Source: a virus
DNA length: 64,000 nucleotides
Direction: 5' to 3' (one strand)
IMG/VR virus record: IMGVR_UViG_3300028840_003924
Location: 72,133 to 136,132 of that record
The number at the start of each line of letters is the position of its first letter. Positions within the stretch are counted from its first letter, which is position 1. Below are positions 38,231-63,763 of the stretch, piece by piece. The notes below the pieces were generated by a model. The model was not told the origin of the DNA. It did not search any database and saw only the letters and a list, made by a program, of their open reading frames with translations. A program made the position numbers and the translations under genes.

Positions 38231-39040
38231 ATGATCATTCTCAAAATCATCGTCTTCATCGTCGCCATCGCCCTCATCGCCTGGGCCTGCGGTTTGCTCA
38301 AAAGGAAGAAGGTTTCAGCCTCCACCAGAGGAATGACCTTCCAAGAATACTTAGACAACTGTAAAACGCCACCAGAAGCGAAGGTGGAGGACGAGAAGTT
38401 TATGAAGGCCGTGAAGGGAGCGTTGGACAAGCCCCAGAAACCACTTGGTGCCAAAGAAATACAACAGCGAATCAGCGAATTGCAGAAGAAGCTTATAACC
38501 GACTACGGCTATATCCCTTGCGGTGTAGGCTCCCTCGCTCAAGATGATAAGAAGGAGGAACCCAAGGACCCACAAGAGATCACCGAAGCCGACATCAATA
38601 CTTGGGTCGAAGTGTCCTCCCCACGTATATATGAAGGAACATGGCAGCGAAGACAACTCGTAAAAATCAACGCCGGTCCAGGCGACTACCAATACAAAAC
38701 GAAGCATCCATCCTATTCAAACAAGCCGGAGTATTGGGCTAATGCTCGGAAAACAAAAGAGCAAAAACCAACCCCCAAGTGTCCTTCGTGCCGAGGGAAC
38801 TCAATGCACTTTGGTTGTGACCTCTGTCACGGCTCAGGTTACCTGCCGGTCGGCCAACAGGCCATCGACGAAAAGTTCATCGGTCACACAATCGAAGTCA
38901 AGCAGCAACACAACACCAAATGGGTGCGACGTGAGTTGGTAGAAATCCAACTAGACTCGCTCCTACCATTCGTTTGCAAACCCAAAGAAGGACAAGGCGC
39001 ACACCAGACAATCCGCTGGGGGGAAGCTCGTCCCTTATAG
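38231..39040 (+). CDS. Mosaic membrane protein: TM, 2 IEVR/W-ARP modules, Zn finger
   Basis: N-terminal TM; WVEVS...WANARK; CPSC...CDLC; TIEVK...WGEARP. Confidence 0.75.
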   Translation: MIILKIIVFIVAIALIAWACGLLKRKKVSASTRGMTFQEYLDNCKTPPEAKVEDEKFMKAVKGALDKPQKPLGAKEIQQRISELQKKLITDYGYIPCGVGSLAQDDKKEEPKDPQEITEADINTWVEVSSPRIYEGTWQRRQLVKINAGPGDYQYKTKHPSYSNKPEYWANARKTKEQKPTPKCPSCRGNSMHFGCDLCHGSGYLPVGQQAIDEKFIGHTIEVKQQHNTKWVRRELVEIQLDSLLPFVCKPKEGQGAHQTIRWGEARPL

Positions 39041-39054
39041 AAGAGGTATGAACT

Positions 39055-42000
39055 ATGGACGCCACACAATTCATCGCCATCGCCATCATTGCGCTCCTCG
39101 TATGGCTCCTCTACAAGAAGAGGAAGGCGAAACGGCTCGTTGCGAAAACGGACATCCCCTACCCAACCTCACCACCAGACCCCGAACTCGACCACTTGGT
39201 GGAGGAGTTCGATAAGTCATTCGAGAAGGGCATGGAATCCTGCTGTCAAATCGAAGGAATGCTCAAGGCAGCGAAAAAGAGTGGCACACCATTCGTCAAA
39301 ACAGAACCGACCGTCGACGAGTCGCACATCGGAAAGATGATCGAAGTGCGTGGGACCATGAACCCACACGACAACCAAGCAAAATGGAGATTGCGAAAGC
39401 TGTTCGAGATTGTCCCCGAGAAGGATGCCCCTTACGGGTGCGAAAACATATGTGCTTCGGGTGAAACCATTTACTGGTGCGAAGCTCGACCCATCCAAGA
39501 AAAGAAACCCGAACCACCCCCAACGGTCGGCATAGCCAAGGATGACGAGTTCCCCATCGGCAGCCGAGTCATTGTCGATGAGCCTATCGCCGACTATCGC
39601 CGCCGTGGTAAGGTCACCGGAACAAGGGAGGGTGAACGTGCTGTTCGACTTGATGATAACGACTCCGACCATTCCAAATTCTACCCGGTCAGTCGGCTAG
39701 AACTCGAAATGCTCCCCGAGGGAACGCCCGTCAAGATCGACAAAGGGAACAAAGAAGACGGCCCCAAAGAATCATTTTGGGCCAGCTTCGATGGGCTCAC
39801 CGGGAAGGTTCGTCAAAGCAGAGAACTCGGATGTCACATCGATATGGATGGGCCTAACCCGCCACATCCCGGTGCCTATCTTAGTAGAAAACATCTTAGG
39901 GTTATCAGCAAGCCGCTGAAGTTTCCGGAAGTGTCCGTTGAAGAGTGCCTCATGGGTCATACGAGTGATCCAGCATATCGGAAAATCAAAGTTGCGACCG
40001 AAGTCGACAGGTCCTTCATCGGCAAGATGATCGAAGTGCGAGGTATCGGAGAGAACGAAGTACGAGAATGGCTCCAACGTAAACTGAAGCGGATTGAGGA
40101 CCGAGAGCAGAACCGCTATGTTTGCGAGAACGCAGTCAATCCGAAGATCGATTCCCTATGGCACGAAGCCCGACCTCTTACGTGCGACAATGAGCCGATA
40201 CTCTTAACCCACAAGGGAGACCGGGGTGAAGTGCGAGAGTGGCGTCTCCCAGGTGGTGCTTACCATCGGACAGATGGACCGGCGTTGATCCGCACCTACG
40301 ACAAAGAGCAGACGTTCCAACTGGCAAGTAGAACTCCACGCAAAGATATCCGCTACGTCCGAGAAGAAGTGTGGTTCGACAATGGAAAGATGCACCGCAA
40401 AAACGCTCCTGCTCAAATTTTCTATGATGGCGATAAACGCATCGTTTACGCAGCATGGTGGGAAGGTGGAGAACAAACCCACGACAGCCTGTGTCGTAGC
40501 GACCGTGTGCGGGTTCAACAGGCCCACCGTGCCCAAAGAGAGGGAACGGTGAAGGGCATCTATGAGGACAATTCGATCTTGGTCGAATGTACTGATGGTT
40601 CCACCGCAGGCGAATATCGACCAATCTATTCTCTCATCAACGGAAAGATCGACAATCCGTCCTACGGCTCCGTGGACGAATCGTTCATCGGTAAATGGAT
40701 TGATGTCCGTGATACAAGGTCTTACGAAGGCACATGGCAACGGAGGAAACTTTTAGCTATCGACTCCGATAGGTCCGAACACTATTATTGCCTGCATCCA
40801 AAGGGAGGCACCCTTACCACCAACTGGCCTGAAGCCCGACCGGCAAGTGAAAACAAGCCGACCGAAAAGTGTCCGCACTGTGAAACTCTCAAACGCCAAG
40901 CCGATTGTAAGCTTTGCTTCGGCGCAGCTTACTTGCCAGCAGGGCCAGGGCCTGTGCGGGAAGAGGTCAAAGAGGTTGAAGAAGTTGACGAATCCTACGT
41001 CGGCAAGATGATCGAGGTGCGGGCACTTGCAAGTAAAAACTGGGTCACGGTGGCCGACATCGGCAGGATGATTGAAGTTCGGGATTACCCAGATCGCCCA
41101 TGGCAGACAAGACAACTCGTCGACATTCGACCAGCATCCGCCTACCGTTACCAATGTAAAGATGACAAGATCGACGACGGTAAGAGGAGTTGGAGGTATG
41201 CCCGTCGAATCAAAGAGAAGGCACCACCAGGATGCTTAGGACCCAATACGTACCAGTACTACATCAACAAGGAAGTAGAGGCTTCCGACGACGGGCAAGA
41301 ATGGAAAGTGGTAGTGCTGACGCATTACCGAGAAGATTCCGACTACCCTTTCATAGCATGTAGAGATCACACCAAATGGAGGTTCGCCCGACCAGAATGC
41401 CAGACCAAATGCCCCCAATGTGGAATTGCTATGTGCCACAGACCGGGCCATGAATGCGCCACTTGCCCCCAAATGGATCACTGTGCCAATCACGCCGAGG
41501 GTTGCACGTCGTGGGAAGTGGTCACCGAAGAACAAATCGGTAAGATGATCGAAGTGCGAGATCATCACACCCACGACTGGAATGAAAGGGAGTTGGTCGA
41601 AATCAACAAGGGCCAGTTCAGAGCTTACCTTTGTAAGAAGTTTGGCAACCCTCTCAGCACAGCCGAGTGGAAGTTCGCACGACTAATCAAAAAAGAGCCA
41701 CCGAAGGGCCTGATTGGCAAACAACATATCGGCAAGATGATCGAGGTGCGTCAAGGTGATGGCGACGTATGGGAACGCCGGAAGTTGCTCCGGTTCACTG
41801 ATAAGGATGAATACGGACAAGGCGGCGTGCGACCCTACGTTTGCCAAGTTCCCGCCCAGAAGGTAGTGTCCCGATCAGAGCACTGTTGGATACAAGCCCG
41901 ACCAATCGCAACCGGAACACCCTGTAGCCAAGCAGAGCCACCGGCCAAAAAGAAGCCCGAACACGTCTGTGGTTTACAAGGCTTCGGCCACAGCCTGAAC

Positions 42001-43119
42001 GATGTGTGCCCAGCATGTGAAGCTCAGGCAAAGGAGTGGGAAGAGAAGAAAGAGAAGAGTACACCACCACCGAAGCAGGAGGAGGCGGGCCAACCCATGG
42101 TTGGTGACAGTCCGCTGTTCTTGCTTGCCAGAGACCCAACCAACTTGAAGAAGACGAAGTGCGAATTTGGCGATTTGAATTGCTACGTCGAAGACGACTG
42201 CTTCCACAGGATGACCAGCTACCACCTTCCCGATGGCCGTTGCCATCGGGAAGATGGTGCGCCTGCATACAAGGCGTTTTACAGGGTCGGCTACGAGAAG
42301 GTTTCGACCCCACAAGGCGAACAACAATTCACTCTGGTTGTCCGATGGTACAAAGACGGCGTACCTCATCGGGAAGACGGGCCAGCCGCCATCTGGTATC
42401 TCCACGGCAAAGAGGTACACAGAGAATACTATCTGGAAAACTGTTGTCTGGAAAGGTTCACTTGGGAGGTGCGTCGATCACTAGGCCACAGAAGTGTGGC
42501 ATGCCATACAAATGATCGCTCGGAATGGCGGTTAGGAACTGCCGATGGACTGCTTCATCGCATTGAAGGGCCTGCTGTTGAATGGACTAACGGGCTGCAC
42601 GAGTGGTGGCTCTTTGGAGTCCATGTGGCCGTAAAAGATCACAAAGAGTGGGTGAAGCTCCTCGAATGCGAAGGGTCGCAGAAGATTAAAGAGAATCTCC
42701 CCGTTTACGTTAAACAAAACCCGGAGATCGACCAAAGGATACCAAGGGAACGGAAGGAAGTGGTGGACGAGTCAGTTGCCCACGGTTTCACGCCCGAAGA
42801 GATGAGACCTTACGTCGGCAAAGAAGTCGAAGTAAGAGAAGTCAGGAACAATAGGTGGTATCCTCGCACACTAGTCAAGATCGAGGGTGACAAGCCTCCA
42901 TTCGTCACCCCCGGAAACGCTCGTTGGTCATTCGCCCGACCGATCAAAGTGGTGGACGAATCCTTCATCGGAAGGAGAATCGAAGTGAGAAACGATCCCG
43001 ATGGTACGTGGTGGCTACGGGAACTTGTTTCAATCAACGCCAATGGGGAGTTTCTTTGCAAGGTGGATCAGGGTACTTACCCATGGAAGTTCGCTCGGCC
43101 CATCCAAGAGACATCCTAA
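39055..43119 (+). CDS. Large mosaic membrane protein: TM, about 10 IEVR/W-ARP modules, KOW-like and HRxDGPA repeats, Zn fingers
   Basis: 1354 aa; repeated IGKMIEVR...W..R.L...Y.C...W..ARP; GAGG RBS. Confidence 0.85.
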   Translation: MDATQFIAIAIIALLVWLLYKKRKAKRLVAKTDIPYPTSPPDPELDHLVEEFDKSFEKGMESCCQIEGMLKAAKKSGTPFVKTEPTVDESHIGKMIEVRGTMNPHDNQAKWRLRKLFEIVPEKDAPYGCENICASGETIYWCEARPIQEKKPEPPPTVGIAKDDEFPIGSRVIVDEPIADYRRRGKVTGTREGERAVRLDDNDSDHSKFYPVSRLELEMLPEGTPVKIDKGNKEDGPKESFWASFDGLTGKVRQSRELGCHIDMDGPNPPHPGAYLSRKHLRVISKPLKFPEVSVEECLMGHTSDPAYRKIKVATEVDRSFIGKMIEVRGIGENEVREWLQRKLKRIEDREQNRYVCENAVNPKIDSLWHEARPLTCDNEPILLTHKGDRGEVREWRLPGGAYHRTDGPALIRTYDKEQTFQLASRTPRKDIRYVREEVWFDNGKMHRKNAPAQIFYDGDKRIVYAAWWEGGEQTHDSLCRSDRVRVQQAHRAQREGTVKGIYEDNSILVECTDGSTAGEYRPIYSLINGKIDNPSYGSVDESFIGKWIDVRDTRSYEGTWQRRKLLAIDSDRSEHYYCLHPKGGTLTTNWPEARPASENKPTEKCPHCETLKRQADCKLCFGAAYLPAGPGPVREEVKEVEEVDESYVGKMIEVRALASKNWVTVADIGRMIEVRDYPDRPWQTRQLVDIRPASAYRYQCKDDKIDDGKRSWRYARRIKEKAPPGCLGPNTYQYYINKEVEASDDGQEWKVVVLTHYREDSDYPFIACRDHTKWRFARPECQTKCPQCGIAMCHRPGHECATCPQMDHCANHAEGCTSWEVVTEEQIGKMIEVRDHHTHDWNERELVEINKGQFRAYLCKKFGNPLSTAEWKFARLIKKEPPKGLIGKQHIGKMIEVRQGDGDVWERRKLLRFTDKDEYGQGGVRPYVCQVPAQKVVSRSEHCWIQARPIATGTPCSQAEPPAKKKPEHVCGLQGFGHSLNDVCPACEAQAKEWEEKKEKSTPPPKQEEAGQPMVGDSPLFLLARDPTNLKKTKCEFGDLNCYVEDDCFHRMTSYHLPDGRCHREDGAPAYKAFYRVGYEKVSTPQGEQQFTLVVRWYKDGVPHREDGPAAIWYLHGKEVHREYYLENCCLERFTWEVRRSLGHRSVACHTNDRSEWRLGTADGLLHRIEGPAVEWTNGLHEWWLFGVHVAVKDHKEWVKLLECEGSQKIKENLPVYVKQNPEIDQRIPRERKEVVDESVAHGFTPEEMRPYVGKEVEVREVRNNRWYPRTLVKIEGDKPPFVTPGNARWSFARPIKVVDESFIGRRIEVRNDPDGTWWLRELVSINANGEFLCKVDQGTYPWKFARPIQETS

Positions 43120-43121
43120 CC

Positions 43122-43346: not shown

Positions 43347-43370
43347 CCCGAAATCGAGAAAGGAAGTACA

Positions 43371-43718: not shown

Positions 43719-43941
43719 TACTCGGCGATATCTTTGCGCCGGTCTGATCTGTTCTGCGATCTTGATGGTGACAGGTCTGGTCATCGGCCTGCTGGATGCC
43801 TGTATCTTTGAATGGGACGAGAGGTTGATGGGCGTCATCACCCTTTTCTATGTCGTCTCTTTCGTCTTTGTCACGTTCTTCTTTTGGCGCATTTGCCATT
43901 ACGATTTCCAACGGTGGTTAGAAGAAAGGAAGATACAGTGA
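43678..43941 (+). CDS. Small membrane protein (2 TM), start uncertain
   Basis: Two hydrophobic stretches; stop overlaps next GTG. Confidence 0.55.
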   Translation: MKRKSTVTRKTKASTRRYLCAGLICSAILMVTGLVIGLLDACIFEWDERLMGVITLFYVVSFVFVTFFFWRICHYDFQRWLEERKIQ

Positions 43942-44786
43942 GTAAGAAGGTCACCAGAAAACACATCGGCAAAGTCGTTATGGTTCGGAACCATTCCGAC
44001 AAGTGGAAGGAACGTAAGTTAATCGATCTTGATGGTGGTTCTGGATATCGTTATCGCTGTCAGGGTGGTGACGGCTGCGGGATATACTACTGGAAGTACG
44101 CCAAGCCGTTGAAGAAGAAAAAGAAGAAGTGCCCCATCACCGAAGAACACGTCGGTCAGTATATCCTTGTGCGGGACTACAAATGGGAGAGTTGGAAAGG
44201 CCGACAGTTGGTGCGCATTGCGAAAGGTGCCAAATCGCCCTTTGTTTGCAAGCGCCCAGGTAGTGAGAGCACAGAAACTTGGAAGCACGCCAAACTCGAA
44301 AAGAATCGTTCCGAGGTCACTCCGAGTCACATTGGTTCAACAGTTTACGTCTCTGACACTGGTGGTAGTGCTTGGTGTCGCCGGACACTGAGCGGGGTCA
44401 GGCCCGAGTCATCATACCCATACAGAACAGGCCGTAGCGGTTGCTGGCAACACGCCCGATTGGATCGGCCTGATGGTCCGCCCCCGACAAGAAAAGAGGC
44501 GAAAAAGGCTGTGGTGGAGAAAACTGAGGTAGAGCAAAACCAACCAACATCAGGAGGTGGGGTAGTTGCTCTTATTGTCCTTGCCGTCATCATAGTTGGC
44601 CTTGTCGCCGCTCTCTTTGGGTTTCTTGGTGGGACTGCGCTGTCCGTTCAAGAAGTCAAAGACTGGAAAAATTCATCCGCATATTGGGAGAACCAAGCCG
44701 ACCTGCTCAACCAGCAGTTGGACTACCACACAAAGAAGAACAAACAAATCCCGTTACCAGAAATTCCTCAAGGAGAATCGCCATGA
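43938..44786 (+). CDS. Mosaic protein: 3 IEVR/W-ARP modules and a TM helix near the C-terminus
   Basis: GTG start with AAGGA; HIGKVVMVR, HVGQYILVR, HIGSTVYVS units; TM VVALIVLAVIIVGLVAALFGF. Confidence 0.75.
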   Translation: MSKKVTRKHIGKVVMVRNHSDKWKERKLIDLDGGSGYRYRCQGGDGCGIYYWKYAKPLKKKKKKCPITEEHVGQYILVRDYKWESWKGRQLVRIAKGAKSPFVCKRPGSESTETWKHAKLEKNRSEVTPSHIGSTVYVSDTGGSAWCRRTLSGVRPESSYPYRTGRSGCWQHARLDRPDGPPPTRKEAKKAVVEKTEVEQNQPTSGGGVVALIVLAVIIVGLVAALFGFLGGTALSVQEVKDWKNSSAYWENQADLLNQQLDYHTKKNKQIPLPEIPQGESP

Positions 44787-45343
44787 AGAAGTTACTCGTC
44801 GCCGGTGGCGCTGTTGTTGTCCTACTCATCTTTATCTTTTGCGTCTGCATCGGTACGGTGAACAGGGAGGTCACCCTTCGCACGGGCTTTGAAGCCTCCG
44901 AAAAGAACGTGACCATCTCCTTCGACAAGATGTGGAAGACGTTGGCCAACCAAGCCGAGATCAACGAGAAGTACAAGGACGACTTCAAGGACGTTGCGCC
45001 GGAACTTGTGGAAGCCCGCTACAAAGGCGGGACCGGCAAGCTCATGGCGTGGATTCAGGAACACAATCCCGAGTTCACCCCGGCCATGTACACGAAGCTG
45101 ATGGACTCGGTCGCCCAAGAGCGAACCGTCTTCAACCGTGAGCAACAGAAGATGATCGACTACCACCGGGAGCACACTCAGTTCGTGCGCAAACCGGTCC
45201 AGAAGATGATCCTGGGAATGTTCGGTGATTCCTCCGAACTGACCATCTCGCTTATCACTTCCTCGAAAACAGAGGACGTTGTCGCTACCGGCAAGGACGA
45301 CGACGTGAATCTCTTTGACAAGAAGAAGCCGGAAAAGGAATGA
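44783..45343 (+). CDS. Membrane-anchored LemA-like helical protein
   Basis: AAGGAG RBS; TM then helical bundle with R..FN..Q...I..H pattern. Confidence 0.55.
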   Translation: MKKLLVAGGAVVVLLIFIFCVCIGTVNREVTLRTGFEASEKNVTISFDKMWKTLANQAEINEKYKDDFKDVAPELVEARYKGGTGKLMAWIQEHNPEFTPAMYTKLMDSVAQERTVFNREQQKMIDYHREHTQFVRKPVQKMILGMFGDSSELTISLITSSKTEDVVATGKDDDVNLFDKKKPEKE

Positions 45344-45347
45344 GACG

Positions 45348-45689
45348 ATGCAAGCAATTCAACACGGACGGTCTTGGGAAGCGCCGAGACGGGAAAACCT
45401 CATAAGGGTGGCAGACAAACTTTGTGCTGCCTCCTATGGGCTTCTTCACGGGACCGAGAAGGCTCGTTATAGGTGCCTGAGTAACACCATCAACGAGTTT
45501 GAAGCGGTAGCGGGTGAGCAACCCCAAGTTCAAATGCGATCCTGGGAGACGCCGAACACCTTACAGAGGTTGGCTTACGGACTTCTCCATGCCGCTTGGA
45601 CAATCATTCGTGGCCGACCAAACAACCGGTTCGCCGAACTGGAAGTCGCTATCCAGAAATACAGGAAGTTCCGAGAAGAAAACGAATGA
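45348..45689 (+). CDS. Hypothetical protein with internal duplication
   Basis: RSWEAP...YGLLH and RSWETP...YGLLH halves. Confidence 0.6.
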   Translation: MQAIQHGRSWEAPRRENLIRVADKLCAASYGLLHGTEKARYRCLSNTINEFEAVAGEQPQVQMRSWETPNTLQRLAYGLLHAAWTIIRGRPNNRFAELEVAIQKYRKFREENE

Positions 45690-46855
45690 TCGTTTGGTTT
45701 TTACTCCTGATCCCCATTGTCACCGCCGCCGTCCTTTGGATCGGCTGGGCGCAAAAGGTGACATGGTGGGAACTGGCGGCACAATTAGGAGTTAGCTTCT
45801 TCATCGTTCTGATCGCCAAACTCTGTGTAGGGACCTTCCGCACGTCCGATCTCGAATACTGGACAGAGGTCGTCAATCAAGCCGAGTACCACGAGGCATG
45901 GACTGAACGATACACCACCACCGAAACCTATACGGATGGTAACGGCGACCTACAAACAAGAGTCGTCACCCGCACCCGTCGACACCCGCCGTTCTGGCGA
46001 CTGATCCTCTGTGACGGACGCAAGGTTAGCGTCAGTGAAAAGAAGTACAAACTGGTCGTTAGGCGGTTCGGCAACGAAAAGGAGGTAGACCTCAGCCATT
46101 GGGGACAATGCTCCTGGGGCGATGGTGACATGTACGTCACGAAATACAATGGCCCAAGAGAAAAGATGCTGACCGCCACCACAACACATCGATATACTAA
46201 CAAGGTCCAGGTGTCAAAGAGTATCTTCAACTTCCCCGAATTAACCAAAGAGGATGTGGAGTTCTACCAACTCTTTGAATATCCCGGCGTTGGCGATCCC
46301 ACAACGACACCCTGCATCCTGGGTACCTACTCAAAGAAGGCGGCGGCAGAGGAAGAGTTGCGACGATGTAACGCTGAACTTGGCAGGGCTAAACAGGTCC
46401 GCATGTGGATACTCATCTTCAAAAACCAACCGCTTGACGCTGGGGTCATGCAGGAAAGCTACTGGTGTGGTGGCAATAAGAATGAACTCGTTCTCTGCGT
46501 CGGCCTCGACGACGCAGAGAGCGTCCAGTGGGCTTACTGCTTTTCGTGGACCGAAGTCGAAAGTCTCAAGACCAGCGTGCGCAACTTCGTGCAAAGTCAA
46601 ACCAAATTTGATGCCTACAAAACAAGCAAGCATATGGCAAAGGAAGCCAGCAGCCAATGGGTTCGGAAAGAGTTCGCCGACTTCAACTACCTGACCATCG
46701 AACCATCTGTGTGGGGTATGTGGATTGCTGGCGTCTTGATCTTCCTACTGAATGTCGGCATGGGCATCTGGATCGTACTTAATGAACACGAAGTATTGGA
46801 AGAGGGGGCCACCCCTTCTCGCCATCGCTATCGATCCTTCCGTCACTACCGATGA
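45686..46855 (+). CDS. Membrane protein (2 N-terminal TM, 1 C-terminal TM)
   Basis: ATGA overlap; YWCGGNKNELVLCVG; VRKEFADFNYL. Confidence 0.75.
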   Translation: MIVWFLLLIPIVTAAVLWIGWAQKVTWWELAAQLGVSFFIVLIAKLCVGTFRTSDLEYWTEVVNQAEYHEAWTERYTTTETYTDGNGDLQTRVVTRTRRHPPFWRLILCDGRKVSVSEKKYKLVVRRFGNEKEVDLSHWGQCSWGDGDMYVTKYNGPREKMLTATTTHRYTNKVQVSKSIFNFPELTKEDVEFYQLFEYPGVGDPTTTPCILGTYSKKAAAEEELRRCNAELGRAKQVRMWILIFKNQPLDAGVMQESYWCGGNKNELVLCVGLDDAESVQWAYCFSWTEVESLKTSVRNFVQSQTKFDAYKTSKHMAKEASSQWVRKEFADFNYLTIEPSVWGMWIAGVLIFLLNVGMGIWIVLNEHEVLEEGATPSRHRYRSFRHYR

Positions 46856-46864
46856 GGATTTACC

Positions 46865-47122: not shown

Positions 47123-47337
47123 AGCAATCACTGATCGACAGTCTAGTTGGCCTTTCCTTTGATGACGCCACCGAGAAAATCAAGGAGAGCGGTTTCGACC
47201 TGATGGTTGTTGACGTGGGGGCGGTAATTACCGAAATTGCCCGTCCTAACATCATCATTGTGGGCGTAGAAAACCAAATGGTCAAAGAGGCTCGTGCCGG
47301 TGACCCTACACAACTGGAAACCGAACCGGAGCAATGA
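47119..47337 (+). CDS. Small protein, I78/potato-inhibitor-like pattern
   Basis: LVGLSFDDA...VITEIARPNIIIVGVENQMVKEARAG. Confidence 0.5.
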   Translation: MKQSLIDSLVGLSFDDATEKIKESGFDLMVVDVGAVITEIARPNIIIVGVENQMVKEARAGDPTQLETEPEQ

Positions 47338-47576
47338 AGATCGAACTCGTAGCCCTACTCTTCATAGCCCTGATACTGAAAGGAGCCTTCCAAACCGGAG
47401 TCGGATGTAGTAGAGGCTACAAACCTCCAGACCAAGAAACGCTTCGTATCCACCAGGAAATGATACGAGCCCGAATGAACCGACAAAATCAACCTGTGAT
47501 TATTCACAGATCGAATATGAGGAGAGCGAAAACGTTTCACTACCCACCACCACGTTTACGGACAAGCGTACCATGA
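47334..47576 (+). CDS. Small membrane-anchored protein
   Basis: N-terminal hydrophobic helix; ATGA overlap. Confidence 0.55.
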   Translation: MKIELVALLFIALILKGAFQTGVGCSRGYKPPDQETLRIHQEMIRARMNRQNQPVIIHRSNMRRAKTFHYPPPRLRTSVP

Positions 47577-47778: not shown

Positions 47779-48135
47779 ATGCCATTCCAACTCGTAACAC
47801 TCGACGTTCCCGGTGGCGAAGTCAAACGGGACAACGAGGTGTACGTCGTAGTAGACAACACCTTCCTCCAGAACCTCACCGTGAGCCAAACAACATTGCA
47901 TCCCGGCCAATCCACCCAAGGCCACTCGCACGACGGCCTTGATGAAGTATACATCTTCATCAGCGGTCAAGGGCGAATGGAACTTGATGATGCACTGCTA
48001 GAGGTGAAGGCGGGAGATATGGTCCTAATCCCTGGTGGAACCTTCCATCGTGTTCACCAAGGCATGGACATCCCCAGCAAAGACCTGATCTTCACCTGTA
48101 TCTTCCAACAGTACGAAAGAGAAGAAGATAAATGA
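47779..48135 (+). CDS. Cupin domain protein
   Basis: HSH...EVYIFISGQG...VKAGDMVLIPGGTFHRV. Confidence 0.9.
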   Translation: MPFQLVTLDVPGGEVKRDNEVYVVVDNTFLQNLTVSQTTLHPGQSTQGHSHDGLDEVYIFISGQGRMELDDALLEVKAGDMVLIPGGTFHRVHQGMDIPSKDLIFTCIFQQYEREEDK

Positions 48136-52540: not shown

Positions 52541-52575
52541 CACCACCTCCCGCCGCATAGCGGCGGGAGGTGGTG
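52541..52575. repeat. CCACC hairpin element, intergenic
   Basis: CACCACCTCCCGCCGC-ATA-GCGGCGGGAGGTGGTG, perfect 16-bp stem 10 nt before ATG 52586. Confidence 0.9.
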
Positions 52576-55828: not shown

Positions 55829-58540
55829 ATGGACTTTCTACTCATTGCCGCCGCCGCTGGTGGCTTCCTTTTCTTCGTCGAAGTATTGCTCAAGATCAAC
55901 AACCCGAAGCCAGAAGAGAAGAGGGAACAGAAGAAGGTCGAGACCAACGTAGAGGTCCAAAAACCCGCCGAACATATTGAAGTGGAGTTGACAGTCGAGC
56001 CCGACAAAGGACTGTCGCCGCATAAGATGACGACGTACCTGCACAAAGAAGTCGAGGTAAGTTCAGACGGAACAAACTGGGAGAAACGCCAACTGCTTGC
56101 CATCGTTACCAATGAAGGGTTCGACTATCCGTTCATCACCAATAATAAGCTTGTCAAAGGGGCCACGACTAGTTGGATATACGCTCGCCCGCTTACGGAA
56201 GAAGAACCACCCAAAGAAGAACCACCCAAAGAAGAACCACCCAAAGAAGAACCACCCAAAGAAGAACCACCCAAAGAAGAACCACCCAAAGAAGAACACC
56301 CCATCAAGAAAGGCATGTGGGTTCGTGTTGATCATGGCTGCCCACATTGCGAAGGCAAAATCAAGGAAGTGAAAGAGACCGTTGGCAAAAGCAAAAGCGT
56401 AGTCAAGATCGAATGTAACGGCAAAACAACCACCATTCAGACAAGCAGCCTGACACCCCTTCCCTTCCAACCGGGTGACCGTGTTGTCTTCGATGTAGGC
56501 GACAAGAAGCTAAGGGCCGATCTCGTAAACCAAAAAGGAACAGTACTCCTTCCTCCCGCCAGCGGAAATTTGGTGCGAGTCATACTCGACAAGCCCTACA
56601 AAACCGCCACTGAGTTCCCCTACTACAAAACCGCCACCGAGTTCATGACCGGAGCGTGCAACTTGCGGCGTATAGAAGACGACCAACCACCACCTTCTGC
56701 GGCACAGCCGCAGAAGGTGGTTAATGCCGCAGATGTCGACAATGCCACCAAAGACCGAGAAGTGCCCAACGAACTCCCAAAGGGAACGAGGGTGAAGATC
56801 ACCAACAGATCGTTCCCAGACTTCTTTGGTAAAGAGGGTACGATCAAAGGTCTTGCCGAAAACCGCTCGGGGTCAGAACCACAGCTAATGTATGCCCTCG
56901 ATATCGACGGAAAATATGCCCAGTTCTACCGGTCGTCATTTGAAGTTCTACCCGACGAAGACGACCCCTTTCAACCCGGTGTGTGGGTGAGGATCAACAA
57001 CGCCAACAATCCCGACAACATCGGTATGAACGCCAAGATTGTACAAACTTACAATCGTGACGTTGAAGTGGAACTTGGCTGCAAGCACCACACCTTCAGC
57101 AAAAACAAGCTTAGCGTCCTCCCGTTCCAACCGGGCGATTGTGTCACCATCACCGAAGGCCAGTATACAGGAAAAGAAGGAACGATACTAGAGCCGCTGA
57201 CGACCCAGGATTGGGTCACCGTGGAAGTGCAGTCCGCCAAAACGCACAAAATCCGGACCAAATTCGACAGACTGAAACACGCAGAAGACCCAACCACCAC
57301 AGATAACAAGAACGCCCCACCACCACCACCTCCTGCTCCACCGGAGCAGGAGGTGGTGTTCAAAGAAGGAGACCGAGTGGTCATCACTCACACAGCAAAG
57401 AGGACCGGTCTCGTAGGAATGACGGGAACGGTCGCCGTCCTCACCTGTGGTGGTGACGCCTCGGTAGTGACAGACCAACCCGTCGACGGTCATGCTCGCT
57501 GGACCGTCCCCGTAGACGTTCTCGAACACTACAAGGTCAAAGTGGGAGATCGGGTTGCTATCCAAAACCACTCGGCCCTCTACAATGACGCAGAGGGTGT
57601 AGTAGAGAACACCACAAGCGACACGGTGGGCATAAGATTGGATCATCCCGTCGCCACTGCCCGCTACGTCAGCGTTGTCCCAAAGAGCGTCCGACCTGCC
57701 CCGGAGTTCTGCGAAGGCATGTTGGTGGAGATCGTCAACGCCCACAATAAAGACAACATCGGTCTTATCAGAAAAGTTGTCGGTGAAACCCCCAAGGACG
57801 TGATACTCGACTGGAATGGTGGTAACCGCAACTTTGGGAAGGTGTTCGTCCGTCGCTGCCGGTTCCAAATCAACGACCGGGTCAGGATTGTAAGCAGCAT
57901 CAACGGAGACCTCGTCGGCAAACATGGAAAGGTCACCAAAACCACAGACAATAAAGGTCTCATCTGGGTAGCCTTGTATGAGCCAGTCAACTGCCAGACC
58001 AACTGGACGTTGAACATAAATAACCTGGAGCTAGCCAACTTCCGAGTAGGCGACAAAGTGCGGGTAGTCACTTGGCCGATATCCAAAAGAATCGGACAGA
58101 CTGGGAACATCGTTGAAATCGGCGAAAACTCTGCCACGGTTCGTCTCGACGACCAGACCGGTAACATCCAAGGATCGCTGAAGAACTTCCGACACGTTCA
58201 GGCACCCGACTTCCGCAAGGAGATGTGGGTGAAGGTGATGCAGGCCAAGAACAAGAGCATGATCGGGAAGGTCTACCAGATCGTAGTGGTCAGGGACTAC
58301 GACCTCGGTATACGATTGCCGAGTGGTAATATCGGCTTCTTCCTGTTCTCCGCAGTCAAACCACTACCCTTCCAGCCAAAAGACGAAGTCCTCGTCGATA
58401 ATGGCGGACCCCTTCAGGGTTACACGGTAATCATAGAGCATCCCGTCGATCTCACAGGTGAGTGCTTCCAAGTCCACGCACCCTGGCACAGCACCTTCAA
58501 AAAGTGGCACCTTAAAACGAAAGACCTCAGACACACATAA
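55829..58540 (+). CDS. Mosaic membrane protein: TM, 1 IEVR/W-ARP module, about 12 KOW/SH3-like repeats
   Basis: MDFLLIAAAAGGFLFFV; FQPGDRVV, FKEGDRVV, FRVGDKVR units. Confidence 0.85.
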   Translation: MDFLLIAAAAGGFLFFVEVLLKINNPKPEEKREQKKVETNVEVQKPAEHIEVELTVEPDKGLSPHKMTTYLHKEVEVSSDGTNWEKRQLLAIVTNEGFDYPFITNNKLVKGATTSWIYARPLTEEEPPKEEPPKEEPPKEEPPKEEPPKEEPPKEEHPIKKGMWVRVDHGCPHCEGKIKEVKETVGKSKSVVKIECNGKTTTIQTSSLTPLPFQPGDRVVFDVGDKKLRADLVNQKGTVLLPPASGNLVRVILDKPYKTATEFPYYKTATEFMTGACNLRRIEDDQPPPSAAQPQKVVNAADVDNATKDREVPNELPKGTRVKITNRSFPDFFGKEGTIKGLAENRSGSEPQLMYALDIDGKYAQFYRSSFEVLPDEDDPFQPGVWVRINNANNPDNIGMNAKIVQTYNRDVEVELGCKHHTFSKNKLSVLPFQPGDCVTITEGQYTGKEGTILEPLTTQDWVTVEVQSAKTHKIRTKFDRLKHAEDPTTTDNKNAPPPPPPAPPEQEVVFKEGDRVVITHTAKRTGLVGMTGTVAVLTCGGDASVVTDQPVDGHARWTVPVDVLEHYKVKVGDRVAIQNHSALYNDAEGVVENTTSDTVGIRLDHPVATARYVSVVPKSVRPAPEFCEGMLVEIVNAHNKDNIGLIRKVVGETPKDVILDWNGGNRNFGKVFVRRCRFQINDRVRIVSSINGDLVGKHGKVTKTTDNKGLIWVALYEPVNCQTNWTLNINNLELANFRVGDKVRVVTWPISKRIGQTGNIVEIGENSATVRLDDQTGNIQGSLKNFRHVQAPDFRKEMWVKVMQAKNKSMIGKVYQIVVVRDYDLGIRLPSGNIGFFLFSAVKPLPFQPKDEVLVDNGGPLQGYTVIIEHPVDLTGECFQVHAPWHSTFKKWHLKTKDLRHT
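56201..56297 (+). repeat. Coding tandem repeat (GAAGAACCACCCAAA) x6 plus partial, encoding EEPPK
   Basis: Six perfect 15-bp units from 56201 to 56290. Confidence 0.97.
56689..56721. repeat. CCACC hairpin element, in-frame inside CDS
   Basis: ACCACCTTCTGCGGC-ACA-GCCGCAGAAGGTGGT, read as PPPSAAQPQKVV. Confidence 0.9.
57324..57358. repeat. CCACC hairpin element, in-frame inside CDS
   Basis: CACCACCTCCTGCTCC-ACC-GGAGCAGGAGGTGGTG, read as PPPPAPPEQEVV. Confidence 0.9.
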
Positions 58541-58556
58541 CCCGGAGAAAAGAGCC

Positions 58557-61500
58557 ATGTCCGGAATAGACCTTTGCTGCCTGCTCATGCTGGCAATCTT
58601 CCTCGTTGTCCTGTATACCGCCAAGCGCCCCAAACCAGAACCAAAAAAGAAACTGGTAAGGGATGATTACATGGACACTCAGACGGGGATGCGGCAAATA
58701 TCCTACCTCTGCGACGGAAAGCTCCATCGCACGGACGGGCCCGCACGTACACGCTATTATGGCAAGGACCATGACATCATGGGAATGAAGGCAAGGAGTG
58801 CCGATTACTACTACGAGGGCGGTACGTGCTTCTGCATTCTTTATAAGGACTTCAAAAGCGAAATCCTCTACGCCGACTTCCCAATGGACAAGGAGAAAAT
58901 CCCTCCCCGACCCAAGAGCGATGCACTGGCCACCATCGTCGGCGAATACCGACGATGGTGGTATGTTGTCGAATGGACCAAGAAGGAACTGGAGGCGACG
59001 AAGGAGAAACTGGAGAAGAGCGAAGAGAATGTCGCATCGCTTAGTGCCCAACTGACGAACAAAGAGCCCGACCCGTTCCGCAAAGGGGATCGGGTAAAGA
59101 TCATGAAAGTGGGCCACGTTGGGGAGAATGCGTATCTGGGAAAGACCGGCACCGTGATCAACCAGAATTTAACTGGGCTGGTTAATATCAAACTAGATGA
59201 AGAGGTCCACGGAAGTGACAAAACCGGCTTCTATGCCCATCGATTGAAATTGATCGAGAACACACCACCTCCCGCTTCGAGGAAGCGGGAGGTGGTGGTG
59301 TTGGGTGATTACAAAATAGGTGACCGGGTGGAGATCGTGAGTTCCCTCGTCAGTAAGTTTAGAGGAAAGAAAGGGGAAGTGAAAAGGATTTCATCAGCAG
59401 GTGACTATCTCGTCATCTGGTTGGATGAGCCGGTCGGGCAGGAGCAGAGAGTATTCTACCAACCCGACAAGGTAAAGAAGGTTTTCAAGGTTGGCGACCG
59501 GGTGAAGATCATCCAACCCAAGGACACCTCGAAAGGGCCGACATCAGCAGTGTATCTTGGAAGGACGGGAACGGTCGACGCATTGTTGCTGGATGATATG
59601 ATTAGAATGCGTTTCGACGAGAAGATGAACGATAGCTCTACTGTCGATCTGTTTGCTATCCGGTTTGAACTGATAGATGAAAATCCCCGTGCTACGGCAG
59701 AGGACAGCCCACCACCTCCGTCTGCGACGGAGGTGGTGGGCGGGTTTAAGGTGGGGGACCGTGTTCGGCTGAAAGGTGGTTCGGTTCTGGGTACGATCAT
59801 CGATTTTGGTATCAGGGGAACGGGTTATGTTCTTGTGGAGTGGAATAATGATGGCCCTCCGACTTATTGTCCCGCCGAACACTTGATGGAGGAGAACGGC
59901 TATTCCGGCTGCCCTGTTGAAGGTGGGGATGGCTTCAAGGTGGGTGACCGTGCCCAGATCAAGAAGGATTGCCCAAGTAAAAATGCAGGTCAGTACGGCA
60001 AAATCACGAAGATGCGAAAGTTGCATGGTGTCACCCAGGTGATTGTGGAATTGGAGCAGGGGCTGGTTCGGTCGACGCCCTCTAAGGACGACAAAGACGA
60101 CTGGCTCTGGGTTGGGCATTTGGTCCACGCCGAGAAGAGCGAAAGTTTGGACGAGCCAAAGGGCGAGTTTAAGGTTGGTGAGGAGGTTACACAGTTTCAC
60201 AAGCGTCTCAACGAGCTTAACGAAAAAGTGGAGCGGGTTCAAAAGCAGCTAAAGGATGCCGCTTCGGGAGGTCCTGCGCCTACGGAGCAAATGCCCGAGG
60301 TTGACGAGAGCTATATCGGCTATCCGGTGTTGGTATCGTTGGATAAGAAGAAGTGGTTCGCCAGAACACTTACGGAACTCCGAAAAGGGAGGACCCACCC
60401 ATATAAGACTGAACGATCCGACAATCAGAAGCCCGATGATATCGGCAAGTGGAGATATGCCCAACCTTTGTATGCGGCACCTGAGGCCGTGTTGAAATGG
60501 CAGGACGAAGAAGCTCAGAAGATGTTCGAGCAGCAGTTCCATGAACTTCTAGCAAAGGCCGTGAAGAACAACGATGGTAAGGTAGACGAGCGTTACATTG
60601 GTCTGCCCATCGAAGTCTCCATGGACGAGAAGAAGTGGTTCATGCGGACGTTGGTCGAGTGCGATGGGGGTTACTACGGTGTTCGACATACTTGGAGCCA
60701 GCAAACAGAGCACTATCCTCATGCTCGGCCTCTTGGATACGCCCAGCCGGTCTGCGTGGTGAAAGAAGCAGAACAGAAGCCAGAAGACGAAAAGCTCAGT
60801 TGCGAATCTGAGCGATCTTCCGGGTGCGAACAAAAGACCCACCGGCGTGGACTTCTTATCCATCGCACAAGTGGACCGGCTATAACGATCACTATGGATA
60901 AAGGGAAGTCTAGGACCCACTTCAAGCCAAACTTCGAGTGGGACTACTACGAGGAGTGGGTTCTTCACGGGTCCAGGCATCGAGACGACGGCCCGGCTCG
61001 TGTTTGGATGCGAGACGGTAAAGTGGTTTACCAAGAGTACTTCGCCAACGGTGGAAAGTTCACGCCCGCCGAATGGGAGAACCGGGACTACGCCCCTGCC
61101 GAACCGCCAAAGTCCGAATCCACTTCGACAACGATCCCAACCAATCCGACCCTTCCTCCTCTGGCGATTGGCCAGCGTTTGGATGATAGATGTGTCGGTC
61201 TGTACGTCGAGGTTCGGAACAAGTCGAAGAATGATTACTGGCATCGTCGCAAGTATTCACATACGGATATGGACGGTGACAAACCTCGTCACTGGTGTAC
61301 CCATGAAGATCAAGGGAAGCTCTATTGGTGGGAGGAAGCTAGACTTTCCGCCGTTCAATCGCCCCCAACTCGGTGCAGCGAAGGGCGGAAGGGCGGCGGT
61401 AAGTGTACACACAACGCTTGTAGCGAAGGTTGTGTACCATCCAATGTACAACAGTTTGCGAACAGTTGCACGAATGGTTCCGTCGAGTTTTCAAGCGATT

Positions 61501-61619
61501 GTGTGAATTGGCACTGGGGGACACTCAAGGGATACACTCCAAATAATCCCTATCCGTTCCAAGATACGGAAGACCGTTATTATGCATTCATCCGGAGTGC
61601 GAAGAAGAAAAAGGACTGA
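58557..61619 (+). CDS. Mosaic membrane protein: TM, HRxDGPA repeats, about 5 KOW-like and 4 IEVR/W-ARP modules
   Basis: Start at ATG 58557 (GGAG upstream); FKVGDRV units; VDESYIG...WRYAQP. Confidence 0.85.
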   Translation: MSGIDLCCLLMLAIFLVVLYTAKRPKPEPKKKLVRDDYMDTQTGMRQISYLCDGKLHRTDGPARTRYYGKDHDIMGMKARSADYYYEGGTCFCILYKDFKSEILYADFPMDKEKIPPRPKSDALATIVGEYRRWWYVVEWTKKELEATKEKLEKSEENVASLSAQLTNKEPDPFRKGDRVKIMKVGHVGENAYLGKTGTVINQNLTGLVNIKLDEEVHGSDKTGFYAHRLKLIENTPPPASRKREVVVLGDYKIGDRVEIVSSLVSKFRGKKGEVKRISSAGDYLVIWLDEPVGQEQRVFYQPDKVKKVFKVGDRVKIIQPKDTSKGPTSAVYLGRTGTVDALLLDDMIRMRFDEKMNDSSTVDLFAIRFELIDENPRATAEDSPPPPSATEVVGGFKVGDRVRLKGGSVLGTIIDFGIRGTGYVLVEWNNDGPPTYCPAEHLMEENGYSGCPVEGGDGFKVGDRAQIKKDCPSKNAGQYGKITKMRKLHGVTQVIVELEQGLVRSTPSKDDKDDWLWVGHLVHAEKSESLDEPKGEFKVGEEVTQFHKRLNELNEKVERVQKQLKDAASGGPAPTEQMPEVDESYIGYPVLVSLDKKKWFARTLTELRKGRTHPYKTERSDNQKPDDIGKWRYAQPLYAAPEAVLKWQDEEAQKMFEQQFHELLAKAVKNNDGKVDERYIGLPIEVSMDEKKWFMRTLVECDGGYYGVRHTWSQQTEHYPHARPLGYAQPVCVVKEAEQKPEDEKLSCESERSSGCEQKTHRRGLLIHRTSGPAITITMDKGKSRTHFKPNFEWDYYEEWVLHGSRHRDDGPARVWMRDGKVVYQEYFANGGKFTPAEWENRDYAPAEPPKSESTSTTIPTNPTLPPLAIGQRLDDRCVGLYVEVRNKSKNDYWHRRKYSHTDMDGDKPRHWCTHEDQGKLYWWEEARLSAVQSPPTRCSEGRKGGGKCTHNACSEGCVPSNVQQFANSCTNGSVEFSSDCVNWHWGTLKGYTPNNPYPFQDTEDRYYAFIRSAKKKKD
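59263..59297. repeat. CCACC hairpin element, in-frame inside CDS
   Basis: CACCACCTCCCGCTTC-GAG-GAAGCGGGAGGTGGTG, read as PPPASRKREVV. Confidence 0.9.
59707..59741. repeat. CCACC hairpin element, in-frame inside CDS
   Basis: GCCCACCACCTCCGTC-TGC-GACGGAGGTGGTGGGC, read as PPPPSATEVV. Confidence 0.9.
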
Positions 61620-61651
61620 GGCCCGTCGTTATTAACAAAGGAGACGTAGTT

Positions 61652-63763
61652 GTGGAACTACTCATACCACTTTGTATCTTCGTGACTTCCATCGCAATCC
61701 TTACCATTTCTGGGATGGTGAGTTATTATCGGGCCTTCCACCCAAGAGACCCGAAGGGGATGGTGTGGTGCCACAGCGAGAAAGATAGAGTTGTGCATCG
61801 CAAGGGCACCCTGCTCCATCGCAAGAAAGGTCCCGCCATTATCTTCGATTCCGGTCGACAGGAATGGTGGTTCGAGGGGAAGCTCCATAACGAAACAGGC
61901 CCAGCCATCATTGGTGATGACGGCGAAGTCTCTTATTACATCAATGGAAAGCAGTTGACGGAAGCAGAGTTCTTTACGGATGATCGACTAACCAAGAAAG
62001 TAGAAAGCGGCACAACAACATACTTCTGGAAAGGAATGAGGCACCGTATTAACGGACCTGCCGTAATCTATTCTAATGGAGAGGTCTGTTGGTATCGATT
62101 TGGTTGGCGTGACCGGGAAGACGGTCCTGCTGTCATTAAACCTTCGGGCACCAAGAAATGGTACAAGCATAATAAGTATCATCGTGAAGATGGCCCCGCA
62201 ATCGAATGGGCGGACGGAAGCACCGAGTACTACCTGCACGGCGTGAATTACACAGAAGGTGCTTACGTGAAGATGATCGCCGAACTGAAAAAATCCAGAG
62301 AAAAGCTTACCACCACCTCCTCGGCTGACGCCGAGTCGGTGGGTTCTTGGGACTTCCGCATTGAGCATTACACCAACAGCGGTGGGTCTGATACGCAGTG
62401 CGATCTCGAAACCGCTATGAGGAATGTGGGCAAGACTTCTGTCGTTGCCAAAAGTAAGCAGACGGGTGAAGACACGCCAGTGATGGATATTCGATATTCC
62501 CTAAGGGATTATGCGAGCAGAGGCTTCCTTCAATCCTCCCCTGCCGATGCGGCTTTTCTAGGTAGCCTTTCTTCAGAGGGCGTGAATACGATGCAGAAGC
62601 TCTTCGATGACGAAGAGATTACGTACCCGTATGTCATGCTGTTCTTCGACAAGTTAGGGGTGGTGCCACCTATAGACTTTACTGCTGCTGTCATTGAAGA
62701 GCCCTGCGGTGCTAAAAAGAAAATATTCCGTAACTGTGACAAGACAGTCATCCAGTATCAGAACTCTATCGGCCAGTGGCATCGTGATGGGGGACCAGCG
62801 GAGACTATCCTTCACCATGAAAACCCAGTGCTTGCCAAGGTTGGAAGTGAGCACATCAGGTATGACCGCTACGAAGCCTTCTGGCAAAATGGGAGGAAGC
62901 ATCATGTTCGTGGCCCGGCTGTTCTTTGGTACAAAGGTGATACAGTCGTAGCTAGAGAGTACCACCTGAACGGCGAGCGGATGTCACATTATTTGTGGCG
63001 GCAGAAGCTGAGTGTGAGGTCGGATGATGTCGAAATCCCCGAGGACGAACCTTCCAAGGGTGACGAGGCCACCGAAGAGCACATCAACCAACCGATTGAC
63101 ACTGTACGGGTTTATGCTCGGCCAGTTTCCACTTGGATGTGCAAGTTATACCACGCTGACAAGCAGGGGGCTGTGCTTTCGTCGGTTGACAACGCTTACC
63201 GCACGACTGTCCAAATCAAGCTCGGATGCCTTCGTGTCAATCTTTTCGTCATCGTGTACCACGGGGATTATGCGAACATTGGAGAGGTGGCCGAGAAGGG
63301 GTTCTTCCAAGAACTAACGAAGGAGAACTATTCGACAATCCGCAAGGCTCTTTACGACGACTATATCGATATGCGCATACTCGATGAGGCATTTGAAAGA
63401 GCGGGCATTCCTCTGCCAACTGACGAAACTCCTGCCCGCCTTGAGTGGGTGCATCCTAAGCACGCAGTAACGGGGAAGCCGATCAAGCGGCAGAACAGGA
63501 TGTCGATGCTCGTGTTCATCCATCGCTCCGGAAAGAGGGAGGACCTCATCGAGATTGCATGGAAGAGCGAGCACGATGCGTATGTGATCGACACTCACGG
63601 TACGATGGCAACCTACGAGTCCCTCACTCCCGAAGACCTCGACTGTGCCTGTATGACGTTGGATGCCGAGACTGGTATGGATGCCGAACCTTTGATTCGG
63701 GTTGCGTTTGATCGCAAATACTGCCAGTTGCCAAAGGGTTGGCGGTCGGGTCCCGAGACGTAG
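61652..63763 (+). CDS. Mosaic membrane protein: TM and about 7 HRxDGPA repeats
   Basis: AAGGAG RBS, GTG start; HREDGPA-type repeats. Confidence 0.85.
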   Translation: MELLIPLCIFVTSIAILTISGMVSYYRAFHPRDPKGMVWCHSEKDRVVHRKGTLLHRKKGPAIIFDSGRQEWWFEGKLHNETGPAIIGDDGEVSYYINGKQLTEAEFFTDDRLTKKVESGTTTYFWKGMRHRINGPAVIYSNGEVCWYRFGWRDREDGPAVIKPSGTKKWYKHNKYHREDGPAIEWADGSTEYYLHGVNYTEGAYVKMIAELKKSREKLTTTSSADAESVGSWDFRIEHYTNSGGSDTQCDLETAMRNVGKTSVVAKSKQTGEDTPVMDIRYSLRDYASRGFLQSSPADAAFLGSLSSEGVNTMQKLFDDEEITYPYVMLFFDKLGVVPPIDFTAAVIEEPCGAKKKIFRNCDKTVIQYQNSIGQWHRDGGPAETILHHENPVLAKVGSEHIRYDRYEAFWQNGRKHHVRGPAVLWYKGDTVVAREYHLNGERMSHYLWRQKLSVRSDDVEIPEDEPSKGDEATEEHINQPIDTVRVYARPVSTWMCKLYHADKQGAVLSSVDNAYRTTVQIKLGCLRVNLFVIVYHGDYANIGEVAEKGFFQELTKENYSTIRKALYDDYIDMRILDEAFERAGIPLPTDETPARLEWVHPKHAVTGKPIKRQNRMSMLVFIHRSGKREDLIEIAWKSEHDAYVIDTHGTMATYESLTPEDLDCACMTLDAETGMDAEPLIRVAFDRKYCQLPKGWRSGPET
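62313..62342. repeat. Degenerate CCACC hairpin element inside CDS
   Basis: CCACCTCCTCGGC-TGAC-GCCGAGTCGGTGG, two mismatches, 4-nt loop, read in a different frame (TTSSADAESV). Confidence 0.55.

Follow-up and report, generated by a model that had tools for sequence, protein, structure and literature searches.

What might a phage do with seven neighbouring genes whose products each combine one membrane anchor with a different string of small repeated modules? The question is raised by positions 38231–63763 of a 64,000-nucleotide stretch of viral DNA, here called the window, which is the terminal 64 kb (bases 72133–136132) of the 136,132-bp IMG/VR virus record IMGVR_UViG_3300028840_003924. The virus is a huge tailed phage: IMG/VR lists it as a virus, and genes upstream of the studied region encode a Tail_P2_I protein and a Phage_base_V spike, as well as an M16 peptidase. 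The completeness of the contig is estimated by CheckV at 27%, so the contig represents a piece of a very large phage genome, and a second public assembly of this phage reaches 339,821 bp. With modest confidence, we lean towards the reading that the seven genes, g1 to g7, encode paralogous single-pass inner-membrane proteins that hold arrays of binding-type modules in the cytoplasm and act as tethers or scaffolds.

An initial analysis of the letters alone, hereafter the sequence-only reading, had described seven open reading frames (ORFs) for membrane-tethered mosaic proteins built from three modules, A, B and C. All seven ORFs were found at the proposed starts, and module maps of their products bear out the modular make-up. 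Like every other ORF discussed in this region, they lie on the plus strand, and public gene calls match the lengths of g2, g3, g5, g6 and g7 (1354, 282, 903, 1020 and 703 amino acids, aa). The shortest is g4 (50767–51270; 167 aa), an N-terminal transmembrane segment followed by two A modules, while g1 (38231–39040; 269 aa) has a zinc ribbon between its two A modules. The 1354-aa product of g2 (39055–43119) carries nine full A modules and one fragment, four to five C repeats, a zinc ribbon and Cys/His clusters (one at 41401–41514) behind its N-terminal anchor, and three B-like stretches were seen in it by eye. The zinc-ribbon-like finger, CxxC-x9-CxxC, occupies 38780–38827 in g1 and 40870–40917 in g2. 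In g3 (43938–44786; 282 aa), which begins with GTG and whose start overlaps the stop of a 58-aa transmembrane ORF (43765–43941) as GTGA, three A modules precede the transmembrane segment (residues 206–237) and a 45-aa tail. The product of g5 (55829–58540; 903 aa) consists of an N-terminal anchor, one A module, seven PKEEP units encoded by a 15-nucleotide (nt) tandem repeat of 6.9 copies (56199–56301), and 12 putative barrels of type B or of a subtype, B'. That of g6 (58557–61619; 1020 aa) runs from its N-terminal anchor through one C repeat, a coiled stretch, five B, two A, two C and one further A module to a Cys-rich tail. Lastly, g7 (61652–63763; 703 aa) combines an N-terminal anchor, five C repeats (two more by regular expression) and an orphan C-terminal part of 488 aa; neither module A nor module B was found in it. 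Proline- or lysine-rich linkers join the modules, and the soluble parts would thus resemble beads on a string, made up of A, B and C modules, zinc ribbons and these linkers.

The membrane anchors are clear from hydropathy. Exactly one 19-residue window per protein has a Kyte-Doolittle mean of at least 2.1 (range 2.1–3.3), and the next best reaches at most 1.37. The single anchor claimed earlier therefore stands for all seven proteins, and its claimed N-terminal position for six, in which the hydrophobic segment starts at residues 1–3; in g3 it starts at residue 209, after the three A modules, which places the anchor near the C-terminus (44553–44648). The other anchors are encoded at 38234–38299 (g1, followed by KRKK), 39070–39114 (g2, followed by KKRKAKR), 50779–50832 (g4), 55835–55891 (g5), 58572–58622 (g6) and 61658–61729 (g7). 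Where the anchor is N-terminal, as in six of the proteins, the stretch of one to five residues ahead of it has a net charge of 0 to −1, against +2 to +6 for the 15 residues that follow. By the positive-inside rule the positively charged flank marks the cytoplasmic side, so these charges place the arrays in the cytoplasm, as the sequence-only reading had proposed. Sequence thus supports a predicted single-pass, N-out/C-in topology for the six. No signal peptide precedes the A modules of g3. The proteins hold 3–43 cysteines each, in addition to the zinc ribbons, a composition that would fit a reducing compartment.

The arrays might instead lie on the other side of the membrane, in the periplasm or the envelope, where SH3-type domains that bind the envelope could, for instance, serve to exclude superinfecting phages or to control lysis. 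Binding to the cell wall is common among the SH3-type domains of bacteria. Moreover, one relative of module A, P0031 (91 aa), begins with what we take to be a twin-arginine-type signal, so some members of the module A family may act outside the cytoplasm; three small ORFs around g4 begin with the same kind of signal, and transmembrane segments occur in at least seven other ORFs nearby. We nevertheless consider an envelope location improbable, given that six of the seven proteins have no basic residues before the anchor and +2 to +6 after it, that g3 lacks an N-terminal signal, and that zinc ribbons and many free cysteines would be unusual outside the cytoplasm.

Module A is the main building block of the family. 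A profile hidden Markov model (HMM) was seeded with eight copies and iterated over the 1730 six-frame ORFs of at least 40 aa in the 136-kb contig. It gave 21 domain matches at E ≤ 1e-3, divided 2/10/3/2/1/3 among g1 to g6, with none elsewhere in the contig; 20 of them are full copies, and the remaining one is a 22-aa fragment in g2. Most of the roughly 22 copies previously counted by eye are thus recovered. A supposed fourth copy in g6 (independent E-value, i-E, 0.41) and a supposed collapsed remnant in g7 (i-E 2.7) lack statistical support. The two g1 copies lie at 38579–38758 (E = 2e-16) and 38864–39037 (E = 5e-19). The HMM places the full g2 copies at residues 89–146 (39313–39498), 319–374 (40003–40182), 542–596 (40672–40848), 668–718 (41044–41214), 736–780 (41248–41400), 825–876 (41521–41688), 890–950 (41713–41910), 1252–1296 (42799–42948) and 1302–1349 (42952–43107). 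The fragment (40984–41061; E = 4.7e-4) covers the first 20 of 53 profile positions and abuts the next full copy. The remaining HMM matches are the three copies of g3 (43950–44114, 44136–44300 and 44316–44465), two of g4 (50866–51027 and 51115–51267), the single copy of g5 (56027–56197) and three of g6 (60300–60473, 60582–60737 and 61179–61349).

Across the alignment of module A, W25 and A58 are invariant, and V12, R28, L30 and W55 are kept in at least 90% of copies. An AlphaFold2 model of the copy at residues 89–146 of g2, with the 20 paralogues as alignment, has a predicted local distance difference test score (pLDDT) of 89.4 and shows a short helix followed by a four-strand barrel. Tudor domains head its Foldseek matches at E 0.2–0.4, with 0 matches at E ≤ 1e-3. 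In VIA, the PHF19 Tudor domain came first (Z 5.4; root-mean-square deviation 2.4 over 51 residues), closely followed by PsaE, the C-terminal domains of BirA and integrase, and KOW domains; none reached Z ≥ 8. The BFVD structures gave 0 matches at E ≤ 1e-3, and the ESM Atlas no usable match. From this model we read module A as a probable small SH3/Tudor-like beta-barrel, and no more.

Nor does sequence connect module A to a family of established function. No Pfam Tudor, Agenet or similar family matched the seven proteins at E ≤ 1, and profiles of module A and of relative P0002 found nothing below E 0.5 among PDB sequences; that module A might be a known family of established function, which would have spoken against the sequence-only reading, is not borne out by these searches. 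Among 1.84 billion representative proteins, the profile matched 199 at E ≤ 1e-3 and 16 at E ≤ 1e-10. The 93 non-self relatives that were scanned had no Pfam family in common; eight matched phrog_21026 and four phrog_22292, both without functional annotation. Among the matches listed, nearly all are short proteins that have between one and three copies of A and no transmembrane segment, the membrane-anchored ones being the phage's own genes, P0027 and probably P0006. An alignment-based search of metagenome contigs for relatives of g2 produced 218 pattern matches, of which 0 were confirmed. Judged by its sequence relatives, module A is a rare unnamed family of about 53 aa, and it is this phage lineage that specializes in long membrane-anchored A arrays.

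Module B is harder to delimit. A strict HMM recognizes eight strong copies, three in g5 at residues 511–567 (57359–57529), 678–736 (57860–58036) and 738–790 (58040–58198), and five in g6 at residues 174–234 (59076–59258), 251–309 (59307–59483), 310–373 (59484–59675), 397–444 (59745–59888) and 460–525 (59934–60131). Four more copies in g5 score 10–13 bits, whereas none of 420 shuffled controls exceeds 5.4 bits: residues 213–285 (56465–56683; 10.9 bits), 315–374 (56771–56950; 10.3 bits), 432–484 (57122–57280; 10.8 bits) and 568–622 (57530–57694; 13.0 bits). Of the roughly 20 copies in the sequence-only reading, eight strong and four weak ones are accordingly retained; nine further candidates were seen by eye alone and are indistinguishable by sequence from shuffles. 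Four of these nine form the B' subtype (GMWVRV..NIG) in g5, at residues 157–212 (56297–56464; within the shuffle range on the B HMM), 380–431 (56966–57121), 626–677 (57704–57859) and 794–845 (58208–58363), the last three coinciding with a DNA repeat, D9.

The KOW/SH3-like nature proposed for module B is upheld by a consistent similarity to KOW domains, though only through sub-threshold matches. Pfam KOW (PF00467) scored 18.2 bits in g5 against a cut-off of 22.3, and the copy at residues 432–484 matched KOW at E 0.0022. The same copy matched NCBIfam NusG_myco at E 1.2e-7, with 31.5 bits against a cut-off of 150. Other sub-cut-off NCBIfam matches of module B were uL24, S4e and RNase P component 1, the last at E 3.4e-5 in the B' copy at residues 626–677; all NCBIfam matches obtained were below cut-off. 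Among PDB sequences the B profile picked up uL24, eL21 and the KOW domain of NusG, with E-values between 1e-3 and 4e-3. These weak matches suggest that module B is a KOW-like barrel. A profile-profile comparison of A and B gave a probability of 0.2, so the two modules appear unrelated by sequence.

Module C, the HRxDGPA repeat, recurs at a spacing of 23 aa. In the window the HMM gave 12 matches (four in g2, three in g6 and five in g7) and a regular expression added three, in agreement with the 15 or so copies claimed. They lie at 40237–40431 and 42343–42594 in g2 (two repeats each), at 58707–58745 (one) and 60837–61010 (two) in g6, and at 61793–62218 in g7, where a 31-aa insert separates the second and third of five repeats. 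Ten more HMM matches occur upstream of the window, in two minus-strand ORFs at contig positions 20159–21229 and 23388–23981, with six and four repeats, respectively, and no A or B module. A search with the C run of g7 gave 7608 candidates, 6501 of which are relatives at E ≤ 1e-3. PF20530 (DUF6745) is carried by 67 of the 120 relatives listed, among them relatives at E 1e-30 to 1e-63, and PF07661 by one; on PF20530 the N-terminal part of g7 itself reaches 17.1 bits, where the cut-off is 27. The ESM Atlas neighbours of module C are phage proteins. A model of the stretch 61769–62296, made with 57 sequences, has a pLDDT of 89.2, and all ten of its Foldseek matches in the PDB at E ≤ 1e-3 are MORN1, junctophilin-2 or MORN4. 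The template modelling (TM) scores are low (0.24–0.33; best VIA Z 6.6) because the sheets curve differently. As a repeat, module C is thus very common in phages; the model predicts a MORN-like fold for it, and it is not specific to the mosaic family. An internal repeat in the g7 tail was also considered, and was dropped for want of BLAST support.

Several of these results weigh against the reading of all seven products as cytoplasmic, membrane-tethered binding arrays. The charges flanking the g3 anchor are ambiguous (−2 and −1), and P0031 hints at export of some A-containing proteins. The fold matches of module A (no Foldseek E ≤ 1e-3, no Z ≥ 8) are within the range of chance, and module B never reaches a curated cut-off. 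Furthermore, g7 shares only the anchor and module C with the other proteins, and C is so common that it may not mark a common function.

Duplication within and between genes is well recorded in the A modules. Pairwise identity among the 20 copies is 16–49% (median 30%), and DNA similarity is confined to a motif at the start of the module (63–83% over about 40 nt). For 11 of the 20 copies the nearest neighbour is in the same gene, against 4.6 ± 2.0 under label shuffling (P = 0.003); module A identities thus follow gene boundaries more than chance predicts. Longer blocks are shared between genes as well. Residues 117–250 of g1 and 540–702 of g2, which comprise an A module, the finger at the same place and the start of the next A module, are 30% identical over 164 aa (E = 1e-20), as expected from the A-plus-finger block that had been noticed in two genes. 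Further block matches link residues 400–606 of g2 to 765–940 of g6 (E = 1.5e-6), and 823–949 of g2 to 5–119 of g3.

Comparison with relatives reveals change at the level of blocks. The g2 copies at residues 890–950 and 1252–1296 are 67% and 45% identical to residues 240–301 and 319–364 of P0006, respectively; adjacent in P0006, these modules sit about 300 aa apart in g2, with a zinc-finger-plus-C block between them. The linear motif MGHTSDPAY of g2 (39949–39978) is identical in relative P0010, at a different position in the architecture. Distant relatives therefore differ by gains and losses of whole blocks, and slow modular evolution is real. On the other hand, the g2, g3 and g6 proteins are identical in the second assembly, where g5 is 883 aa instead of 903 aa, having four PKEEP units fewer. 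Logan contigs of two DNA runs, which may be the source samples and whose contigs hide rare variants, show 0 differences and no joints, and break only at the PKEEP repeat and at 50187–50330. With divergent copies, same-gene neighbours and products unchanged in the second assembly, the mosaic genes represent an old duplication family that is not actively shuffled, built by duplication and by slow block gain and loss. The ongoing, diversifying reshuffling suggested by the sequence-only reading is not supported by these observations.

Hairpins had been put forward as possible agents of such reshuffling. The contig contains 32 perfect hairpins (stem 11–19 bp, loop 3–8 nt, mostly 3), compared with 0–1 in ten first-order Markov shuffles. 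Many have conserved outer arms, CCACCACC(T)CC and GG(A)GGTGGTGG, around inner stems that are variable yet complementary. They are located between genes and inside unrelated ones (a tail gene, the gene for ribosomal protein bL12, signal peptides), and many fall within coding sequence, where they read as PPPP...(E/K)VV or TT...KVV. The mosaic genes contain six. Of these, four occupy proline-rich linkers that precede B modules, and no hairpin is adjacent to an A module. Perfect hairpins in linkers are found in g5 at 56689–56721 (15 bp) and 57324–57358 (16 bp, ending one base before a B module), and before B modules in g6 at 59263–59297 and 59707–59741 (16 bp each); examples elsewhere in the window are 24089–24121, 30896–30932, 50176–50210, 52110–52142 and 52541–52575. 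In-frame palindromes of this kind are reminiscent of the Rickettsia palindromic elements, and the hairpins with loops of 3 nt, of the promoters of phage N4. As a feature of the whole contig, the hairpins lend no specific support to module shuffling.

These data bear directly on a different function for the arrays, namely as decoys or sponges for host defence proteins, ribosomes or RNA polymerase that diversify quickly through module exchange at hairpins. The many binding-type modules per protein would suit such a role, as would the whole-block differences between relatives and the four perfect hairpins in linkers just before B modules. We regard it as unlikely, however: copies that are 16–49% identical record no recent exchange, the products are unchanged in the second assembly and the Logan contigs lack joints (rare variants being hidden there), and the hairpins are contig-wide, with none next to module A. 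PADLOC gave no match either, although its library consists of defence genes and not of counter-defence genes.

It could also be asked whether the arrays have a specific function at all. Large viral genomes accumulate repeat domains, and the seven genes might be such an expansion, largely dispensable to the phage. One study of amoebal giant viruses reports that larger genomes have more repeat-domain genes (PMC5753266), and this precedent supports an expansion here. So does the orphan status of the genes: a protein search with g2 returned two matches, one of which was g2 itself, and the C-terminal tail of g7 matched only itself when proteins of 268–854 aa were searched. Two virus collections returned no relatives; tblastn with g2 against 50,697 phage records found no match, and in viral contigs 95 pattern matches to g2 yielded 0 confirmed ones. 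Against this, the ORFs are intact over up to 1354 codons, and the core residues of module A were kept at 90–100% while the remainder drifted to about 30% identity, which indicates selection on the fold. We therefore hold a largely functionless expansion to be a possible but doubtful explanation.

The reading that we prefer, of scaffolds anchored in the inner membrane, can be summarized as follows. The arrays would have grown long ago by tandem duplication within genes and by copying of multi-module blocks between neighbouring genes, and would now be stable. On the cytoplasmic face of the membrane, to which they are presumably fixed, they would serve as multivalent scaffolds and would keep some macromolecule of the host or the phage in place while infection proceeds. 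By analogy with the folds concerned, the likeliest ligands would be proteins or nucleic acids of the kinds that KOW, Tudor and MORN folds usually bind. A more specific version, which we consider a long shot, is that module A is a Tudor-type reader from the phage, and that the arrays dock a possibly methylated component of translation and so create a membrane-tethered zone of translation or assembly. That idea stems from the presence in the neighbourhood of two methyltransferase-like genes and a phage-encoded bL12.

These and other genes characterize the surroundings of the mosaic family. The studied region also includes a radical-SAM gene and a cupin gene. The bL12 gene (48132–48530; Ribosomal_L12 C-terminal domain, E = 4.7e-25) contains a perfect 16-bp hairpin in its 5′ end (48149–48183). 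When bL12 was searched in genome contigs, just 34–45% matches were obtained, in two unrelated metagenome-assembled genomes, and these give no hint of the host. The two paralogous class-I S-adenosylmethionine (SAM) methyltransferase-like genes, at 36843–37523 and 52909–53565 (Pfam E 7e-5 and 4e-3, below cut-off), lie directly upstream of g1 and between g4 and g5, respectively. The region is a block of membrane-protein genes, with transmembrane ORFs at 36089–36568, 37520–37819, 37816–38220, 43765–43941, 44780–45343, 45683–46855 and 47334–47576; one neighbouring transmembrane ORF has a Thr/Pro/Glu-rich tail of tandem repeats (36349–36450). Three small paralogous ORFs flank g4 (50131–50724, 51273–51665 and 52064–52528). 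They begin with MKRR(H/V)F and a hydrophobic stretch, which resembles a twin-arginine export signal, and two of the three carry a hairpin within the part that codes for the signal peptide. Directly after the hairpin at 50176–50210, the patch 50187–50330 occurs as two alleles with 10 differing positions (depth about 38 versus 13), the sole sequence variation across 20 kb. An Rfam scan of the window gave 0 matches, and promoter-like and terminator-like sites were not commoner than in shuffles. A Logan contig that spans g5–g7 extends about 4.7 kb beyond 63763, close to the end of the window at 64000, so further genes of the mosaic kind may lie past it.

Huge phages contain many genes that nobody can name. 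The present analysis defines a rare unnamed domain family, which one phage has expanded 20-fold and attached to the membrane alongside KOW-like and MORN-like modules. Should the arrays indeed keep machinery of the host or the phage at the membrane, they would represent a new way for a phage to organize the infected cell, and it would be worth giving module A its own family entry and solving its structure. Should they be no more than drifting expansions of repeats, they would still provide a well-documented example of how a large phage genome grows.

Neither DUF6745 nor Tudor-like membrane proteins in jumbo phages nor an architecture of this kind turned up in a literature search, and comparison is made here with known systems that share single features with the mosaic proteins. 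Tudor domains of the royal family (PHF19, MTF2, LBR, Sgf29 and TDRD3; VIA Z 5.1–5.4), which are five-strand SH3-like barrels of about 60 aa, are the best structural neighbours of module A, whose model shows four strands in a barrel of about 55 aa, and the aromatic residues W25, the Y/F of strand 3 and W55 presumably stand at the places of the Tudor cage residues. Unlike them, module A has no Pfam or PDB-sequence profile match and scores in the range of chance, and it is a phage module, strung together in up to ten copies on a membrane anchor. With the KOW domains of NusG/Spt5, uL24 and eL21, module B shares the pattern G-D-x-V-x-I ... G-x-x-G-x-V and weak profile matches, and several KOW barrels in a row also occur in Spt5. 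In contrast to these proteins, however, module B stays below cut-offs, lacks an NGN domain and occurs in 5–12 copies behind a membrane anchor. MORN proteins (MORN1, MORN4 and the junctophilins) and DUF6745 likewise consist of 23-aa hairpin repeats, all ten significant Foldseek matches of module C are to MORN proteins, and junctophilins combine MORN repeats with a single membrane anchor; module C differs in its TM-scores of 0.24–0.33, in the g7 score below the DUF6745 cut-off and in its motif, HRxDGPA. Finally, the repeat-domain expansions of giant viruses are similar in that paralogous arrays of short binding repeats have built up in a very large viral genome. Those viruses infect eukaryotes, and their repeats are ankyrin, MORN and similar ones (PMC5753266), whereas the family described here belongs to a tailed phage, is anchored in the membrane and is built mainly from a module that has no name.

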